DNA of 63,908 nt, counting the filler, from Reclinomonas americana ATCC 50394 (lineage: Eukaryota), in NCBI GenBank assembly GCA_048213135.1. It is 8 parts of 4 records of this genome, joined end to end, with 100 filler letters (N's around TTAATTAATTAA, not from the genome) between each part and the next. Parts side by side here need not be neighbours in the genome. Positions count along the whole stretch, not along the records: positions 40,331 to 49,025 come from PS015250.1; 7 more parts are not named here. One strand, given 5' to 3'. The notes below the pieces were generated by a model. That model did no database searches. It had not been told where the DNA came from and saw only the letters and a list, made by a program, of their open reading frames with translations. Position 1 is the first letter of the stretch, and each line of letters starts with the position of its first letter. Shown here piece by piece: positions 26,916 through 54,760 of this stretch. Made by a program: the position numbers and the translations under genes.

Positions 26916-27058
26916 GGGGGGGGGCGCGGGGGAGAATTCACCTGTCCACTCGAGTCGACAGCTTTAAATCCCTCATATAATATCACTCGCTCGCTCTCAC
27001 GCACTCACTCACACACACACTCTCTCTCACTCACTCACTCTCTCTCTCTCTCACGCGA

Positions 27059-43727: not shown

Positions 43728-46700
43728 TCACGGTGGTGCCGCCGCCGTTGCTGGCGTTGCCGCTGCATGCGGGGGCGGCACTCGTGGTGGCGCGGCTGCA
43801 TGCCGTATCTTCACGAGTTCGAAAACCAAATCAGTCGAGGAAAGTCGCTTCGCCATCGACTGCAACCCAAACTCATTAGCAATTCACACCCAGAGCCGTT
43901 GTCAACAAGAAGCTCTCCACCACGCAACTTTCCAGCACATCTTGATCACTTCACGATGCATGCTAAATGCGTACAACGATGTGTCATCCAACGTTCCCGG
44001 CATTCTGCCGCGACTCACTGCGTCCAACAGATGTGTCGCTCCCACACCATCGTATGGCTTGGTCCGAGTGATGCAGTACCACAGAATGGTGCCGAACGAG
44101 AACACATCGGCGCGCTCGTCGTACTGCACGCATACACGGCGAAGGGGTATGAGTGCATGGGAGGCAGACACTCGCGCCCGCTAGTGCTGCAGCGTGCGCG
44201 CTCTCACCTGCTCGTCCTTGAGCACTTCGGGTGCTGCAAACGCCGGCGTACCCACTTTGCTTCGCATGCGGCCCAGCGTGCACCACTCCCTGGCCTCGCC
44301 AAAGTCACAAATTTTTAGAGTGCGGCAATCGCCACTCACGAGAATGTCTGCCACACATGCGGGATGAGTCTTGGAGCTCATAATCACCGAGTAACGGAGC
44401 TGGGACGCAACTCTCGGGTTTCAAATCGCGATGCACGACTCGTCGAATGTGCATGTGTTCAAGCGCCTCAGCGACTTGCAGGAGCAGATCGATCAAGTCC
44501 TCCGTGGGGAAAGTGCGATCGTCGATCAGCGATTGCAATGTTAGTGGCGCTCCGCCAACCTCGCCAACATACTCCAGTACCAGAGCGGGACCTCCAGGCA
44601 TCCCGTCACACACTGCATGCAACTTGACGATATTCGGATGACTGTACGCTCAGAGAAAGTCAGCAAAGCGAGCGACGCATCGGAGAAGCAACTAGAGACT
44701 AGACAGGGACGAAACTCGAGCTTCATCAGCTGGTGCTCCTCGTTCTGCAGCGACTCCAATGCTTCATCACTTTCGGATACGTATTGCTTGTACACCACGT
44801 CCATCTGCTGGCCATCGATCATGCATGTGGCTCGGCATACCAGCCACTGACCTGTTGTGCGACACAATGAGGAACGCTGAAGTTGACGACGACGTGAGCA
44901 AAAGCTTGGAGGACAACTGACCGATTGCAAGTGGGATTCTGTCAATAATGGCGTCTGGCTGCACACGTGGCGCACGAAGCACAAGTCGTTTGACAGCCTC
45001 ATTGTATTCCTCGTCCGTAACACGCATCCGACGAATATCTGTGATGTACGCACACAACGCAACGGTGGACAGTGTGAAGACTGAACAAGGCATCGCTTCG
45101 TGACCATACGATAGTTGACACAACTGTCGTATGAGATGAAAAACTCATTGATGCACTCGTGTCCGCCTGGGAACAGCTGGTGCAAAATGTCGTGAATTGC
45201 GCGCATCCAGTACAAGTACCTGCTGTCGGAGAGGGCCGCCGAAGCCACCAAGTGCGAAACCTCGTTGCGGCATTTCTTCAACTCATTCACCATACGAATC
45301 TGCTCAGGTTGCACCTTGAGGGATGGACGGAGTAATATGCACTCTGCATAGACACGGCACGCAACAATGGCCGCGTCTGTCCTCTTATGCAACAGTCGCA
45401 CAGCCTTCTGATCCTGCCCGGGACCACTGCCGACTCGGACGGCATAATCGCTAATGCTCCCATCGTCACAGGCTACAATCGGCACGTACGAGATCTCCAG
45501 CAACAGCGTGGCAAGCAGAGTCACATCCATTTTCGCGGTTGAATCCGACCTCGAGCTATTGAAGAGAAGTCTGAATTCTCGCACTGCGTTGTGTTTGTCG
45601 TCGAAAACTTTTGCCGCACGCCGCTCCTCGTTCCCGTCCTTGTCCACAGAAAACCAGGCGTAACTGTGAATACAACAGCGACACAGTGAGCGAGACACCA
45701 AGTGGAGAGACATTGAAAACGACCTCTCTCTCTCTCTCATCTTATCTCATGCTCACCGAGCAGGAATTTCCGTCAATGGCTGGCAAAGTTGCTCAATATC
45801 ATATTCAGGGAACAGCCTCATGAAGCTCGACATACGGTCCACAAAGAGTGCACCAAGAGCCTTGGGGACAGCGTTACGCATCATTTCGTCAAGCATCATG
45901 ACTTGCCGACGGTCGCTGCGTGTCGCCAGGGATGTGATGAGAGAGCAACCAGTGTTGGAGAACAACATCGAACTCCAGCGCACCGGAGAAACGCGGACTG
46001 CGTGGTAGTGATGGAAGCGCGCAACGAATGTCTGTCAGCTTCCGATTCTGCAAGCGACCGCCGTGCATCGTCCAGCCGTTGCTGCAAGTCGGAAACTTCA
46101 TGCGCCAGTTCGTCTCTGGCTCTGAGAAGCTCCATCTCACGTTCCCGCTGTCCAGCGACAACAGATACCAGCTCTTCCAGTCGTCGGCGAAGTTCCTCTA
46201 CTTCGGAGTGCTCTTCATGCTGCGAGCTGCCGGGAGGAGGCTATTGAAATACGAATGTGTAAGTGCGATGCTCGAGAGCAACTGCACACAACGATTGGAG
46301 GAGTGACAAACCTGACTGCTTGATGGGCCGACTGCGCAGTGGACGCACGCACACACACAGCGAGCAAGACGTATACAGCAAGAGAGGAGAAATACGATTG
46401 CCAAACAGGGTTAGAAAAAAACAGACCCCCGTTAACAATGCACCAACGCACCTCCTGCAGATCTGGTGGGCGACTGCTGTCGGAGGCGTGCATTGGTGCC
46501 CTTCCCCTCCAACTTCCGAGCAAGGTCCTCGTGCTTATTCCTCCGTGCGACTTCCGCAGCAGTACAACCGTCGCCATCAAGTCTGTTGATGAGGTCTGGA
46601 TACCTGTCGGCGAGTTGGATGGCGACTCGGGTGTGGCCCCTAGTGGCTGCGCAGTGCAGCGCGGTCGAGCGAGGAGCAATATCCAGCATGCGATCGGAGG

Positions 46701-47264
46701 TGACGGCAACAGCAACTTCGCGGGGGCATCGCTGGGTGTCTGCCAACAACCAGTCGACCACAGGTTGCACACCGTACGTAGCGGCGATCATGAGCGGCGT
46801 CCAGTTCCCGTCGGCCACCGTCACTGCAAGCCGTGGCCCGATCCCGGTGTCACGCCAGAGGTAATTTAGCAGTTCGATGTGACTGCGACGAGCGGCAATG
46901 TGGAAGCAAGTCCAGCGATTCTCGTCCTTTTCCGACTCCGCAAGTAGAATTGCTTCTCCCTGTTGATCAACCAATGCACGCAGCTTACCCAAAGCGCCTC
47001 GATTCGCCAGTTGCCATGCTGTTGCATGATCTTCGTGTGTGTGGGGTGTCGGAATGAGAGAAGAGCGTGGAGGAGAGCAAGTGATCTGAATAAAACCATA
47101 CCTCCGACACCAGCCGGGGGACTGCTGACGCCTGCACTGCCACTGCTGTCAGTGGATGCAGTCCATGCTACTGACGACGCGGTGGCGGCAGCAGCTGAAT
47201 GATCGGGGCCCGGGGTGAGCTCGTCGGCAACCACGTCGTCGTCACTGTCGTCGTGCGTCGCAGA
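43728..47264 (-). CDS. Ankyrin repeats - coiled coil - DZIP3-like HEPN domain - Ser/Thr (TKL-like) protein kinase; possible 5' exons extend to the ATG at 48441
   Basis: In-frame GT-AG path with no N gaps. Ankyrin exon 46452-47030; coiled coil EVEELRRRLEEL..LQQRLDDARRSL; HEPN-like MMRNAVPKALGALF..MDVTLLATLLL..ELKKCRNEVSH..LSDSRYLYWMRAIHDIL; kinase VVYK, LQNE, HPNIVKL, HRDLKPEN, ICDFG, GTPAFAAPE, DVFSFG, MCW; TGA at 43728-43730. Confidence 0.82.
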
Positions 47265-47359
47265 GAGCGGAGTACTGCGCGGACAGAGGGGGAGGGAGGG
47301 AGGGAGGGAGGGAGGGAGGGAGGGAGAGAAAGAGAGAGGTGAGAAACAGAGGGAAAGAG

Positions 47360-47760
47360 TGGGTGAGCGACGACAAAGTGGAACAAGAGTCAACAAGGGA
47401 GCGACGAAGGAGCGACTCATACAGGAGATGCAGACCACAAGAAAGGGACGAAGGTGCGACTCACACAGGAGACGACAAACAAGAGTCGCAAGAGAGCGGC
47501 GAAGGAGCGACTCACACAGGAGAGGGCAGACGCGACAAACAGGAGTCAAAAGGGGAGCGACGAAGGAGCGACTCACACAGGAGACGACAAACAAGAGTCA
47601 CATGGGAGCGGCGAAAGAGCGACATACACAGGAGACGGCAGACACGACAAACAAGACAGAGGCGAGCGACAGAAGACTGCGATGCACACAGGAGACGACA
47701 AACAAGAGTCACATGACTCACACGAGAGATGGCAGACGCGATAACAAGAGTCAGACATGT
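47360..47760. repeat. Intronic minisatellite with ~45-60 bp degenerate units
   Basis: gcgacgaaggagcgactcacacaggagacgacaaacaagagtc motifs repeat several times. Confidence 0.8.
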
Positions 47761-48809
47761 ACATTATCGAAACAATGAGTGGGTGACAGAGGAGCAACAC
47801 ACGACATAATCCCGGTCATCGCACCACCATGACGCCAGACAAAAGAGACAAAAACACCAAACACCGGCGCCGGTGAGACCAACAAAAAACACGACAAAAT
47901 CATCTGCACTCTTTCCACATTACTCATCACACACATACTCTCCCGCATAGATGCACACTCTCTGACACACACACACGCACACATGGGCAAGTTGCAAAGA
48001 GAATTCAACTCGACAGAAAATTGAAAAAAAGGGCACAATAAGCCACATTACGCAACTTTTGCGAAGGTGGAGGTGTCGCCATTGTCGATTACGTATCTCA
48101 CTCTCGTTTTTGATGTCGGGCGAGTGAGTGAATGAGCGCGCCGGGTCTTGCCGGGAACCGAACCCAAAAAGAAGACAAACAAAAAAGAAGTCGAAAAGAG
48201 AGCGCGCGCACAGGCGAGATAGAGAGAAACAAGAGAAAGACAAGACGAAGAGAGGTTCGCGCACACACGACGAGCGAGACGCGCACACACGGCACAGCGA
48301 GCACATTGTCTTGCCGCGCAAATGCGCGTACAGTGGCTCGAAGCGCTGCCAACACGCTGCGTCGTGCTCGCCAGTGCAGCGCTCATCACGCAGCTGCACA
48401 TTGTCGCTGCGCAAGTCGCTGTTGGAGAGAAACGCACTCATGTTTTGTAGACGCAGCGCGACCAATGAACCAGACTGTGAAAACCAACCACGTTTTTTCT
48501 GTGTGGCGCGTGAGGTGAGGTTGCTCTCTCTGTATGGCCTCACTCTTTCTCTGTTTCATTGCCGCACGCGCACACGTGCATTCTGTCACACATTTTGGTT
48601 TGTGTGTTTGTGCATGCGTGAGTCACCGCCAATGCGCGCGCTGACGTCAAAGCGCTCACGTCACCACGCACATGGACAAACTCAATTCACACTCTGCACA
48701 CGCAAACATGCACATTGCCTGACACACACACACGCATCTCTCGCTCTTGTGCACGTGCACTCACGTGTGTGTTTGCGCGCGCGCGTCATCTCTCACACAG
48801 GCAAACAAC

Positions 48810-49025
48810 ATGGCCGAGAAACGAGCTCACTCTGCGGTGAGTGCGAGGGAGGAGAGAGAAGAGAGAGAAGAGAGAGAGAAGAGAGTGTGTGAGAGAGTGA
48901 GAGAGTGAGAGGAGAGTGGAAGAGAGAGTGTTGTCACACACACATTCTCACTCTCTTTCCCTCCCTCTCTCCCTCTCTCTCTCTCTTCTTTTCAGCTCTC
49001 TGACGGCGACGATGTCGACGCGGGA
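48810..49025 (+). CDS. 5' exons of a gene (possibly the bZIP gene), cut by a linker
   Basis: ATG..MAEKRAHSA|GTGAGT..TTTCAG|LSDGDDVDAG. Confidence 0.45.
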
Positions 49026-49189
49026 NNNNNNNNNNNNNNNNNNNNNNNNNNNNNNNNNNNNNNNNNNNNTTAATTAATTAANNNNNNNNNNNNNNNNNNN
49101 NNNNNNNNNNNNNNNNNNNNNNNNNGGGGGGGTGGGGAGAGAGAGAGAGAGAGAGACTGTCCTTGCACCCCTCACCCCACTTGTCAGTA

Positions 49190-50190
49190 TCTGCTGTTTT
49201 CCATGAGTTGCACTACGAGTGATCCTCTCATCAGTTTCTGCCATCTCTGCTTGAGCGTTCCTTGCCCTTCACTTGTCAGTTTCACTCTCTTTTGCTTGCA
49301 CTGCAAGTGATACTCTTCGTCAGTTGCTGCTTTTTCTGCTTTGAGCATTCCTCGCCTCTCGCTTGTCAGTTTCTGCTGTCTTCCATGAGATAATTGCACT
49401 ACGAGTGTTTCTCGTTTCAGTTTCTGCTGTCTCTGCTTTGAGCGCTCCTCACCCTCTCGCTTGTCAGTTTCACTCGCCTCCTTGCTGCTTGCACTACGAG
49501 TGGTTCTCTCCATGAGTGGATCGCTTGTTAACTTGCATCCAGTGGGCGTTCGTTATCTCGCAGTTGCAGCGTTTTCACTGCCTTCTTGCGCTCTGCCTCT
49601 ACCTGCTTTCACACGCTCGCTGTCGGCTTGCATTCTCCTGTCAGCTTCCACTGCTCTCGTGCTGTTTGCACTCTGTGATTGGTTCTCTCATCAGTTGTCA
49701 AACTTGCATCCATGGGCTTCGCTCACCTCTCGCTTTTCAGTTTCACTGTCTTCCATGCTACTTGCACTACGAGTGGTTCTTGATTCAGTTGCTGCTGTTT
49801 CTGCGTTGAGCGTTCCTCACCTCTCGCTTGTCAGTTTCTGCTGTCTTTCATGCACTTATTGCACTCTGTGGCGGTCTCTCATCAGTTTCCATGCACAACT
49901 TGACGATCTTGCATCCTACGGACGTCTCTTCCTCTCACCTGTCAGTTCCGCTGTGTCAAGCTTCAACAGTTTGATGAGTGGTTCTGTCATCAGATTCTGC
50001 TGCCCTCCATGCACTCCTCTTCAAACTTGCATCCTGTGTGTGTTCTTCTTTTCTCTCTTGTCAGTTCTCTCTGTCTTCCATGCGCTACTCTTCAAACTTG
50101 CATCCTGTGGGTGTTCCTCACCTCTCGCTTGTCAGTTCCACTGTCTTTCACGTGCTTTTGCTTCTTGCAGCCCATCCGCTCCCTTGCCTC
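49190..50190. repeat. Degenerate tandem repeat, probably intronic
   Basis: ctctcgcttgtcagtttc, gcactacgagtg and aacttgcatcc recur many times. Confidence 0.75.
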
Positions 50191-52917: not shown

Positions 52918-53592
52918 TTAATTCTGCACCCGCTCCTCACCCTCCTTTCTCCCTTCCCCCTCTACTCCCTGTCCCCCTTCTCCACCCTCATCCTCTTCAT
53001 CATCGTTGAGTCCACTGCGCGCCGCATCCTCCAACAAATCGGCCACCGGCGCGAGCCCGCGCTCCACGCACATATTGTACTTGGCCTCGGCAATCATCTG
53101 CGCAATCTCCTTGCCCGACATGTACATGCCGTCGGCGTCCCACAACAGCGGCTGCTGGTTGTACGAGTCGTCGCGGCGAACGAGCGCATCCAGTCGCACC
53201 CGCTCCATGTTGACCATTTTCGGCGGGTACGAGTTGGCCAGCGACAGGCCGAATGTGGTGTGCGTGAGGCCGACGGTGTTGGCCAGATTCTGAAACGCCA
53301 TGTGGCCGCCCCATACCGCATTCAACGCCGGCATCACTTGCGTCACGTGCGCACCGCGTTGCATGAAAATCAAGTTGGACATGCCGGCGCCGTGTGCGCT
53401 AATCAGCAGGTCGGTGCGCGACAGCAGCTCCACCACGTCGCGCTGCGCGTAGGCGCCGAAATCCACTGCGCGCGCATCGACGCGGAGATCGGGTCGCAGG
53501 TGCTCGGGCATGGCGACTTCGAGTTCGTGCGCCAGGTTCTCGAAGCGGCGCTTGGCGCGTTGCAGAATGGTGACGCGCATGGGTCGTTCGTC
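52918..53592 (-). CDS. Glycosyltransferase family 61, last exon (copy 1)
   Basis: VTILQR..RRFEN; DLLISAHGAGMSNLIFMQRGAHVTQVMP; FQNLANTVGL. Confidence 0.85.
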   Translation of the reverse strand, partial: DERPMRVTILQRAKRRFENLAHELEVAMPEHLRPDLRVDARAVDFGAYAQRDVVELLSRTDLLISAHGAGMSNLIFMQRGAHVTQVMPALNAVWGGHMAFQNLANTVGLTHTTFGLSLANSYPPKMVNMERVRLDALVRRDDSYNQQPLLWDADGMYMSGKEIAQMIAEAKYNMCVERGLAPVADLLEDAARSGLNDDEEDEGGEGGQGVEGEGRKEGEERVQN

Positions 53593-53619
53593 CTGCGAAA
53601 AAGGGAATGGTGTGAGAAA

Positions 53620-54760
53620 GGGTTGAAAATCGACGGCCGCGAAGCGGCTGTCGTGAGCAGAGAGGAGAATGAGTGAGGGTGAAGAAGACAAGGATGGGGG
53701 GTGTAACGATGTGAGATGAAAAGGAATACTGCTGACGGCCGCGAAGCGGCTGTCATGAACGCGGAGAAATGGATGTGACCTTCAAGGATAGAGCAAGAAG
53801 ACGGAAGACGCGAGAAGGCAAGCTGCTTACACACGAGGCGAAAGAAATGCTGACAGCCGCGAAGCGGATGTCATGAACGTATTGAGATAGATGTGACATT
53901 CCGGGATAACGCAGGAGAGAAGGAAGAAGGCAATCACGCACGAGGCGAAAGGAATACTGCTGACGGCCGCGAAGCGGCTGTCATGAACGCAGAGAGATGG
54001 ATGTGCCCTTCAGAGTAAAGCAGGAGAGGAGGAAGACATAATGCGAAGCGGCTGCCATGAGCGCAGAGAGATGGATGTGACCTCCAATGATAGAACACGA
54101 GAAAAGGAAGACTAAACACACTGCGAACGAGAGTGAGAAGGCTATCTGATTACACCCGATGCGAAGAATTCTGTTGACAATTGCGAAGCGGCTGTCATGA
54201 ACGGCAGTATGATGGATGTGACATTCAAGGATGAAGCAAGAGAGACGAAAGACGCGAGAAGGCAAGCACGCACGAGGCGATAGAATGCTGACAGCCGCGA
54301 AGCGGATATCATGAACGTAAAGAGATAGATGTGACATTCCGGGATAACGCAGGAGAGAAGGAAGAAGGCAATCACGCATGATGCAAAAGGAATACTGCTG
54401 ACGGCCGCGAAGCGGCTGTCACGAACGCACAGAGATGGTAGAGACCTTCAAGGATAGAGCAGGAGAGAAGGAAGACTGAACACACTGCTCGAGAAAGCGA
54501 GAAGGCAAATCACGCACGAGGCGACAGGAACTGCTGACGGCCGCGAAGCGGATGTCTTGAACGAAGAGAGATGGATTTGACATTCAAGGATAAAGCAGGA
54601 GAAAAGGAAGACTGAACTCACTGCAAGAAAAGCGACAAGGCAATCACGCATGATGCAGAGGAGTACTGCTGACGGCCGCGAAGCGGCTGTTACGAACACA
54701 GAGAGATGGGTGTGATCTTCAAGGAAAGCAAGATCGACAGCCAACGACGCGTGACTTGCA
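53620..54760. repeat. Intronic minisatellite, ~100-130 bp unit (second version at 56560-57400)
   Basis: Core tgacggccgcgaagcggctgtcatgaacgcagagagatggatgtgac repeats roughly ten times. Confidence 0.88.

Follow-up and report, generated by a model that had tools for sequence, protein, structure and literature searches.

Has evolution brought a sensor, a kinase fold and an RNA-cleaving domain together in a single protein more than once? The question is raised by a gene on the minus strand at positions 43728-47264 of a 63,908-nucleotide stretch of DNA from Reclinomonas americana ATCC 50394 (GenBank assembly GCA_048213135.1). That stretch, called the window here, joins 8 parts of 4 records with filler between them; all positions count along it, and the gene lies in the part that comes from PS015250.1. 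The original prediction, made from sequence alone, held that one gap-free spliced frame at this locus runs from ankyrin repeats through a coiled coil and a helical domain of the HEPN type to a kinase, and that its product is an RNase L-like effector. The frame itself was confirmed, on the minus strand and over 875 codons, with the modules in that order.

Here, the product is read as a cytosolic, multidomain protein in which ankyrin repeats, a coiled coil, a divergent HEPN domain with an R-N-x3-H motif and a TKL-like kinase would make up a dimerising, kinase-coupled HEPN RNase. This is the reading that we favour, and we give it about an even chance. What is new about the locus, as far as its sequence tells, is the order of known modules in one gene.

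Profile evidence for a HEPN-like domain

The case for HEPN begins with exon 5, which was scanned against 24,736 Pfam models with matches accepted to an expectation value (E) of 10. The sole match is HEPN_DZIP3 (PF18738), at 19.2 bits and E 0.0011, or 18.8 bits and E 0.0015 on a longer piece. Among 301 genomes of one bacterial phylum, and 14 genomes taken as controls, none was found to carry the PF18738 family.

More is learned by cutting the exon into pieces. All three small pieces that bear the DVTLL block match PF18738 and nothing else (profile positions 24-57, E 0.096-0.11). Three of the four pieces that bear RNEVSH without DVTLL match a second HEPN family, HEPN_MAE_28990 (PF18737), and again nothing else (profile positions 156-206, E 0.058-0.092). 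This rear match sets 51 residues on 51 positions of the PF18737 profile, with R of the motif at 167 and H at 172. Bacterial members of the family provide the standard for these columns. R-N-x3-H is present in all six that were compared (L038-L043), and 70-residue pieces centred on the motif, taken from five of these six, put R near profile position 167 and H at 172. The PF18737 match of L042 stops exactly on H at 172; one piece of the five, from L038, matched another HEPN family, RiboL-PSP, in place of PF18737. R and H of RNEVSH therefore fall on the same columns as those of the bacterial proteins, and the rear match is anchored on the catalytic motif.

The motif also agrees with the published description of the superfamily. 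HEPN domains are defined by Rx4-6H with a polar residue after R (PMC3710099), and in RNEVSH the polar N follows R. In the same description the motif stands at the end of a long helix that is followed by a loop and a further helix, an arrangement also seen here in a low-confidence structure model, and helices 2 and 3 are separated by an insert that is variable and poorly conserved, as they would be in exon 5 (PMC3710099).

The original prediction had extended the helical domain to MMRNAVPKALGALF. That segment lies at 45843-45884, in exon 4, whose composition is coding-like (GC content at the first, second and third codon positions, GC1/GC2/GC3, of 0.62/0.35/0.54). Exon 4 with MMRNAVPKALGALF matches no Pfam family at E<=10, so it is at most a possible part of the HEPN-like domain.

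How often would such a match turn up in this DNA without meaning? As controls, 116 stop-to-stop frames of 130-330 residues, 22,238 residues together, were taken from elsewhere in the window; any frame that contained X or reached into 43000-47800 was excluded. None matched a HEPN family at E<=0.1, despite the 14 R[NDH]xxxH strings that they contain. One of them, a frame antisense to an RHD3 gene at 35363-36160 (-), matches PF23717 (DUF7159) with 19.1 bits (E 0.0011), and so equals the HEPN match of exon 5 in strength. This match is probably chance, and a 19-bit match alone therefore proves little. The HEPN call has weight because two non-overlapping parts of the exon each select a HEPN family and no other, and because the motif sits on the right columns.

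Could the resemblance be chance?

If it were, the product would be a signalling protein of the usual ankyrin-kinase kind, like ILK, TNNI3K or ArkA. Its coiled coil and helical segment would then form a spacer or a regulatory module peculiar to the lineage, and RNxxxH would merely happen to occur in a helical sequence. Ankyrin repeats with a TKL kinase are a common architecture. A good deal of what was found speaks for this explanation, and so against HEPN. All HEPN scores lie under Pfam's gathering cut-offs (18.8-19.2 versus 27 bits for PF18738, 13-14 versus 26.8 bits for PF18737), and by Pfam's own threshold the domain is not a member of PF18738, though this is its best match. The fourth RNEVSH piece, 45213-45413, which ends inside the next helix, has no match at all. 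DVTLL and RNEVSH are separated by about 80 residues, more than the 144-position PF18738 profile can accommodate unless there is a large insert. PADLOC profiles gave no match to the domain, and NCBIfam gave no HEPN family and one weak, unrelated match. A profile made from the six PF18737 sequences found nothing in the spliced domain with hmmsearch and hhalign, although a profile so thin hardly counts. The equally strong match among the control frames belongs in the same list, as does the shortness of RNxxxH, for which the chance of one occurrence in 875 residues is estimated at about 5%.

Neither homologs nor a fold come to the aid of HEPN. A word-indexed search of longer proteins with exon 5 returned no homolog even at E<=10. 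An exhaustive HMMER search of 1,835,955,588 representative proteins returned one match, P0001, at E 3.8e-13. It was rejected as an artefact, since what aligns with residues 153-176 of the query is a stretch of 24 residues that recurs in P0001 at least 19 times. This protein, 2794 residues long, has OTU and DNA polymerase III alpha domains, after which a 46-residue unit is repeated in tandem at least 19 times. Exon 5 had no usable match in a protein atlas, none at E<=10 by sequence in the PDB and none in metagenome and viral contigs. The nuclease assignment, plausible but below threshold, therefore gains no support from conservation of R, N and H. A HEPN domain has an all-alpha core of four helices, with the motif at the end of helix 3. 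An AlphaFold2 model from the single sequence is of low confidence (predicted local distance difference test, pLDDT, 46.8; predicted template-modelling score, pTM, 0.40). In it DSSP assigns helices only, with the motif near the end of the helix at residues 119-140. Foldseek found nothing in the PDB at E<=0.001 with this model, and its top rows were designed helical proteins, which are uninformative. The check proposed with the original prediction, a HEPN profile or fold match on these exons, has yielded sub-threshold PF18738 and PF18737 on the profile side, and on the fold side no Foldseek match.

Against chance stand the results of the preceding section: two non-overlapping parts that pick HEPN families alone out of all the Pfam models, a motif that falls on the profile's catalytic columns, and control motif strings that attract no HEPN match. 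Taking both sides together, we consider a chance resemblance somewhat unlikely, and the helical domain, judged by these profiles, probably has the HEPN fold. What remains of the DZIP3-type assignment made in the original prediction is that HEPN families are the only Pfam matches and that R and H occupy catalytic columns; a score above the cut-off is what it lacks. If the resemblance is chance after all, this is one more ankyrin-kinase gene.

The kinase domain

Exons 8, 9 and 10 each match Pkinase or PK_Tyr_Ser-Thr (E values in Table 1). The joined protein carries the beta3 Lys (VVYKQY), HRDLKPEN, DFG and APE, together with the alphaC Glu. Exon 8 matches 130 kinase sequences of the PDB at E<=0.001, which are generic kinases. 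In a separate search, the best matches were kinases, for the most part from bacteria, that share 28-49% identity over 76 residues. There is no doubt about the kinase fold; by profile and motifs the domain belongs to the eukaryotic protein kinase superfamily, and it appears TKL-like with its catalytic residues intact.

Whether it uses ATP is uncertain. The glycine-rich loop is degenerate (IGQWLVCRA), and GxGxxG is absent from all three frames of 44770-45144. The model was aligned with 80 kinases from that search; four of the 80 were inspected, giving eight domain alignments that start at model residues 610-631. In one of the eight, the Lys of VVYKQY falls opposite the beta3 Lys in domain 2 of P0007, a bacterial kinase, and none of the eight extends to the loop. 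The original prediction had described Lys, HRDLKPEN, DFG and APE as intact, and this stands; it had not noted the degenerate loop, which leaves the activity of the kinase uncertain. The doubt about ATP use also counts against a kinase-coupled nuclease.

The KEN nuclease (Ribonuc_2-5A, PF06479), which in RNase L and Ire1 comes directly after the kinase fold, has no match on any exon, and the roughly 45 residues left beyond the kinase would not accommodate it; membership of the KEN/RNase L group was rejected for want of this domain. Two other identities were rejected likewise: an MLKL-like four-helix bundle, with no MLKL or HeLo-type Pfam match at E<=10, and a ROCO/LRRK-like protein, with no Roc or COR match on the exons.

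A nuclease or a binding domain?

A HEPN fold need not, of course, be a nuclease. The domain might be a true HEPN that binds RNA or protein as a sensor or regulatory module, with the kinase as the effector. The kinase retains Lys, HRD and DFG, as an effector would, and we know of no RNase activity for any DZIP3-type HEPN, a second point that tells against the reading favoured here. Many HEPN domains are non-catalytic binders (PMC3710099). The same source, however, predicts motif-bearing HEPN domains to be RNases, and the domain described here lacks neither R nor H nor the polar N. The degenerate glycine-rich loop, moreover, would be less expected in a kinase that acts as the effector than in a kinase fold with a regulatory part. 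A HEPN domain that is not a nuclease is accordingly held to be quite improbable, and an active RNase is possible at a little short of an even chance.

How such a protein might work

HEPN nucleases need proper dimerisation to form their active site, and the kinase and HEPN parts of RNase L and Ire1 are helped to dimerise by their other domains (PMC10942766). The protein described here has a coiled coil directly upstream and a kinase fold directly downstream of its HEPN-like domain, and it is proposed that both bring two HEPN domains together. The coiled coil, possibly with back-to-back kinase contacts, would hold two chains together; the two paired HEPN domains would form a composite, metal-independent endoribonuclease site. 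The ankyrin repeats might bind a partner or a ligand that gates the pairing. The kinase fold, for its part, might gate the nuclease through nucleotide binding or trans-autophosphorylation, or else signal onward. Such working would be like that of RNase L and Ire1, assembled independently from another HEPN clade and in another domain order.

What the protein would be for is a different matter. The roles of sensor, of immune factor and of suicide effector are ones that we purely infer, and a part in defence or suicide is unlikely. The full proposal is that kinase-coupled HEPN RNases arose a second time, independently and outside animals: a HEPN domain of the DZIP3 clade, flanked by a dimerising coiled coil and a kinase fold that binds nucleotide and governed by an ankyrin sensor, would be activated by dimerisation as in RNase L and Ire1, and would act in RNA decay or suicide against viruses or intracellular parasites. 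This is distinctly unlikely. In RNase L an N-terminal ankyrin sensor binds 2-5A. The original prediction had seen no OAS- or cGAS-like gene for synthesis of a ligand in the window, and indeed none is found among its 26 + 116 other open frames that were scanned.

The gene model

The model was built from a three-frame translation of 43400-47700 and an enumeration of the GT-AG pairs that keep the frame, so that splicing is inferred from the sequence alone. It runs from 47264 to 43728 in 11 exons, with no internal stop and with TGA as its last codon. About 12 exons had been expected; the division into many exons within the same limits holds, the count being 11. All 10 introns are GT-AG, eight of the 10 acceptors are CAG, and the lengths are 64-110 nucleotides except for one of 203. 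That largest internal gap separates the ankyrin repeats from the coiled coil, and has no room for a separate terminator and promoter. GC1 exceeds GC2 in 11 of 11 exons and GC3 exceeds GC2 in nine of 11, as expected for coding sequence in a GC-rich genome. Alternative in-frame GT-AG pairs exist at introns 2, 3 and 5; they affect a few linker residues and leave the domain content the same. Runs of N occur nearby, at about 40.25, 41.5-41.75 and 49.05 kb, and there is none within 43728-47264. RNEVSH, which had been placed at 45252-45269, is exactly there (Table 1).

Table 1. Exons and motifs of the gene model, by position in the window.
Feature	Position	Strand	Description
Exon 1	47102-47264	-	Acidic, Ser/Ala-rich, low-complexity N-terminal segment
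Exon 2	46444-47030	-	4-5 ankyrin repeats, at about 46504-47019
Exon 3	46026-46240	-	Charged coiled coil, about 60 residues
Exon 4	45757-45915	-	52-residue helical segment with MMRNAVPKALGALF at 45843-45884; no family match
Exon 5	45110-45663	-	HEPN-like all-helical domain, 184 residues
DVTLL block	45513-45527	-	Presumed helix 2 with acidic residue
RNEVSH	45252-45269	-	R-N-x3-H, putative catalytic motif
YLYW	45207-45218	-	Motif located in the joined protein
Exon 6	44922-45038	-	Linker and kinase start, including beginning of degenerate Gly loop
Exon 7	44716-44851	-	Kinase N-lobe: beta3 Lys (VVYKQY, 44781-44798) and alphaC Glu
Exon 8	44412-44641	-	Kinase, hinge to HRDLKPE; Pkinase E 3e-11
Exon 9	44208-44347	-	DFG 44298-44306, activation segment, APE 44226-44234; Pkinase E 1.4e-8
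Exon 10	43929-44123	-	Kinase C-lobe; PK_Tyr_Ser-Thr E 4.9e-5
Exon 11	43728-43859	-	Kinase end and Pro/Ala-rich tail; TGA 43728-43730

The 5' end is the weak place of the model. It contains no in-frame ATG, and 47264 is not a start codon; this too must be set against the favoured reading. Ahead of exon 1 lies a (CCCT)n polypyrimidine tract followed by AG at 47275-47276, which resembles an acceptor. With such a site and no ATG, one or more upstream exons are probably missing from the model: exon 1 probably starts at 47274, after the AG, and at least one further 5' exon probably lies beyond it. A search of 47300-49400 for an upstream exon or start codon found only tandem repeats (periods 51-112 nucleotides), low-complexity frames and an N gap. 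Among the repeats are (GGGA)x9 on the plus strand at 47290-47326, just upstream of the first recognisable exon, and a tandem array at 47436-47716 with periods of 51, 60 and 112 nucleotides and 72-86% matches. Both are probably intronic or promoter-proximal.

That the model is an artefact, whether of neighbouring genes run together, of a pseudogene or of wrong assembly in a draft with N gaps, is highly improbable: the missing ATG, the lack of RNA support, the N runs nearby and the alternative splice pairs at three junctions can be cited for it, whereas 875 codons across 10 introns without an in-frame stop, coding-like codon-position GC in every exon, and a gene free of N with no internal gap above 203 nucleotides argue against it. 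On this account the locus is probably one single gene that carries all four modules.

Ankyrin repeats and coiled coil

The ankyrin repeats are secure. At 46432-47148, Ank_2 scores 60.4 bits (E 2.5e-16, cut-off 27.3) and Ank 50 bits (E 2.2e-13, cut-off 21.1), and Ank_3, Ank_4 and Ank_5 are also above their own cut-offs on the ankyrin exon. The number of repeats, judged by eye, is 4-5, in keeping with the four or so first reported.

Exon 3 has the composition and the periodicity of a coiled coil. Its residues are 47% charged, with no Pro and one Gly, and a single unbroken heptad register extends over about residues 249-332. In most of the 28-residue windows sampled over residues 249-293, five to six of the eight a and d positions are L, I, V or M. 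Its Pfam matches are sub-threshold coiled-coil families only (ATG16 at E 0.0022, and others).

Some 2.7 kb further downstream, also on the minus strand, there is a second ankyrin segment at 40472-41047 (-), within the open frame 40283-41233, which meets the N gap at about 40.25 kb. It has 36% identity to the ankyrin part of the gene (tblastn E 1e-23) and is the only paralogous match when the model is searched against the window. A Ser/Thr/Ala-rich stretch beside it, 40436-40473, is 84% identical to 47136-47173 in exon 1, and its order relative to the ankyrin part is reversed.

Other frames in the window

The window also codes for DOCK, RasGEF and peptidase S28 frames. Four WD40-propeller frames, at 26981-28150 (+), 28632-29858 (-), 29753-31045 (+) and 31162-32364 (+), with E from 1e-41 to 5e-67, give the impression of clustered paralogs, either genes or exons, that encode beta-propellers. 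Two Glyco_transf_61 (GT61) frames, at 52921-53781 (-) and 55852-56616 (-), with near-identical matches at E 3e-8 each and about 2.9 kb between them, look like a tandem duplicate.

The RHD3 gene mentioned above is of the RHD3/Sey1 GTPase type and occupies several exons at 35309-39616 (+), with direct repeats of 56-68 nucleotides, 93-99% identical, at 38250-38531. RHD3/Sey1 proteins occur in plants, fungi and protists; animals use atlastins. The gene argues in this way for a eukaryote that is not an animal, and for nothing narrower. A cysteine-rich frame at 63001-63795 (-) matches EGF_2 (E 8e-21) and DSL, the Delta/Serrate ligand domain (E 1.7e-17), which would be unusual if the host is not an animal; the DSL matches may reflect mere similarity to EGF.

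Meaning

If the domain is an active HEPN RNase, then evolution would have joined a HEPN nuclease to a kinase fold and a sensor on more than one occasion, in this case with a HEPN clade and a domain order unlike those of RNase L and Ire1. This would bear on how the RNases of eukaryotic innate immunity and stress are assembled from shuffled modules. The gene would also offer a compact test case for dimerisation as the switch of HEPN nucleases, since its nuclease would have a coiled coil in front and a kinase behind. Further, the DZIP3-type HEPN, so far known chiefly from NLR-like and E3-ligase proteins of animals, would gain a kinase partner outside animals.

Comparison with known systems

The best Pfam match points to the DZIP3/hRUL138-like HEPN domains, which share with exon 5 a DxTLL block followed by R-N-x3-H. 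Fusions of these domains with ankyrin repeats and with domains of immune type are known, as are lineage-specific expansions, among others in Capsaspora, which is not an animal (PMC3710099); in anthozoan NLR-like proteins the DZIP3-type HEPN is the commonest partner of NACHT (PMC8260672). The domain described here differs in its score, below the cut-off, in the large insert between its two blocks, in its apparently non-animal host and in its partners: neither protein kinase nor coiled coil is among the fusions listed in PMC3710099. A search of open-access full texts brought up no description of a protein kinase linked to a DZIP3-type HEPN; it did not cover the supplementary alignments and architecture lists of PMC3710099, which may bear on this point.

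The ankyrin TKL kinases, such as ILK, TNNI3K and ArkA of Dictyostelium, share the two ends of the protein, an N-terminal ankyrin part and a C-terminal TKL-like kinase, and the kinase of ILK is likewise degenerate. Here, however, some 300 residues of coiled coil and HEPN-like domain stand in between, and no close kinase relative was found. MLKL offers a parallel of another kind: a helical bundle upstream of a kinase fold with an altered nucleotide-binding loop, and the logic of a death effector. The helical domain of the present protein differs in carrying a HEPN motif. Las1-Grc3 is a dimeric HEPN nuclease coupled to a kinase, with a coiled-coil domain adjoining HEPN (PMC10942766); its kinase, Grc3, acts on polynucleotides and is a chain of its own, whereas here a protein-kinase fold is on the same chain, and the Las1 profile has no match on the exons of the gene.

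This leaves RNase L and Ire1, the systems named at the start. RNase L has nine ankyrin repeats and a pseudokinase, whereas this protein has 4-5 repeats and keeps the catalytic kinase residues. Its HEPN-like domain precedes the kinase in place of following it, its nearest profiles are DZIP3 and MAE_28990, and it has a coiled coil. What is shared is a single chain that unites a kinase fold with an Rx4-6H-bearing domain of the HEPN superfamily, to which RNase L, like the present protein, adds ankyrin repeats (PMC3710099), and a nuclease that in RNase L and Ire1 dimerises with the help of other domains (PMC10942766), as it would here. The term RNase L-like is thus apt for an analogous mix of domains and not for family membership: because it has no KEN domain, the protein is not a member of the RNase L/Ire1 group, and the resemblance is, on this comparison, one of analogy, not of descent.

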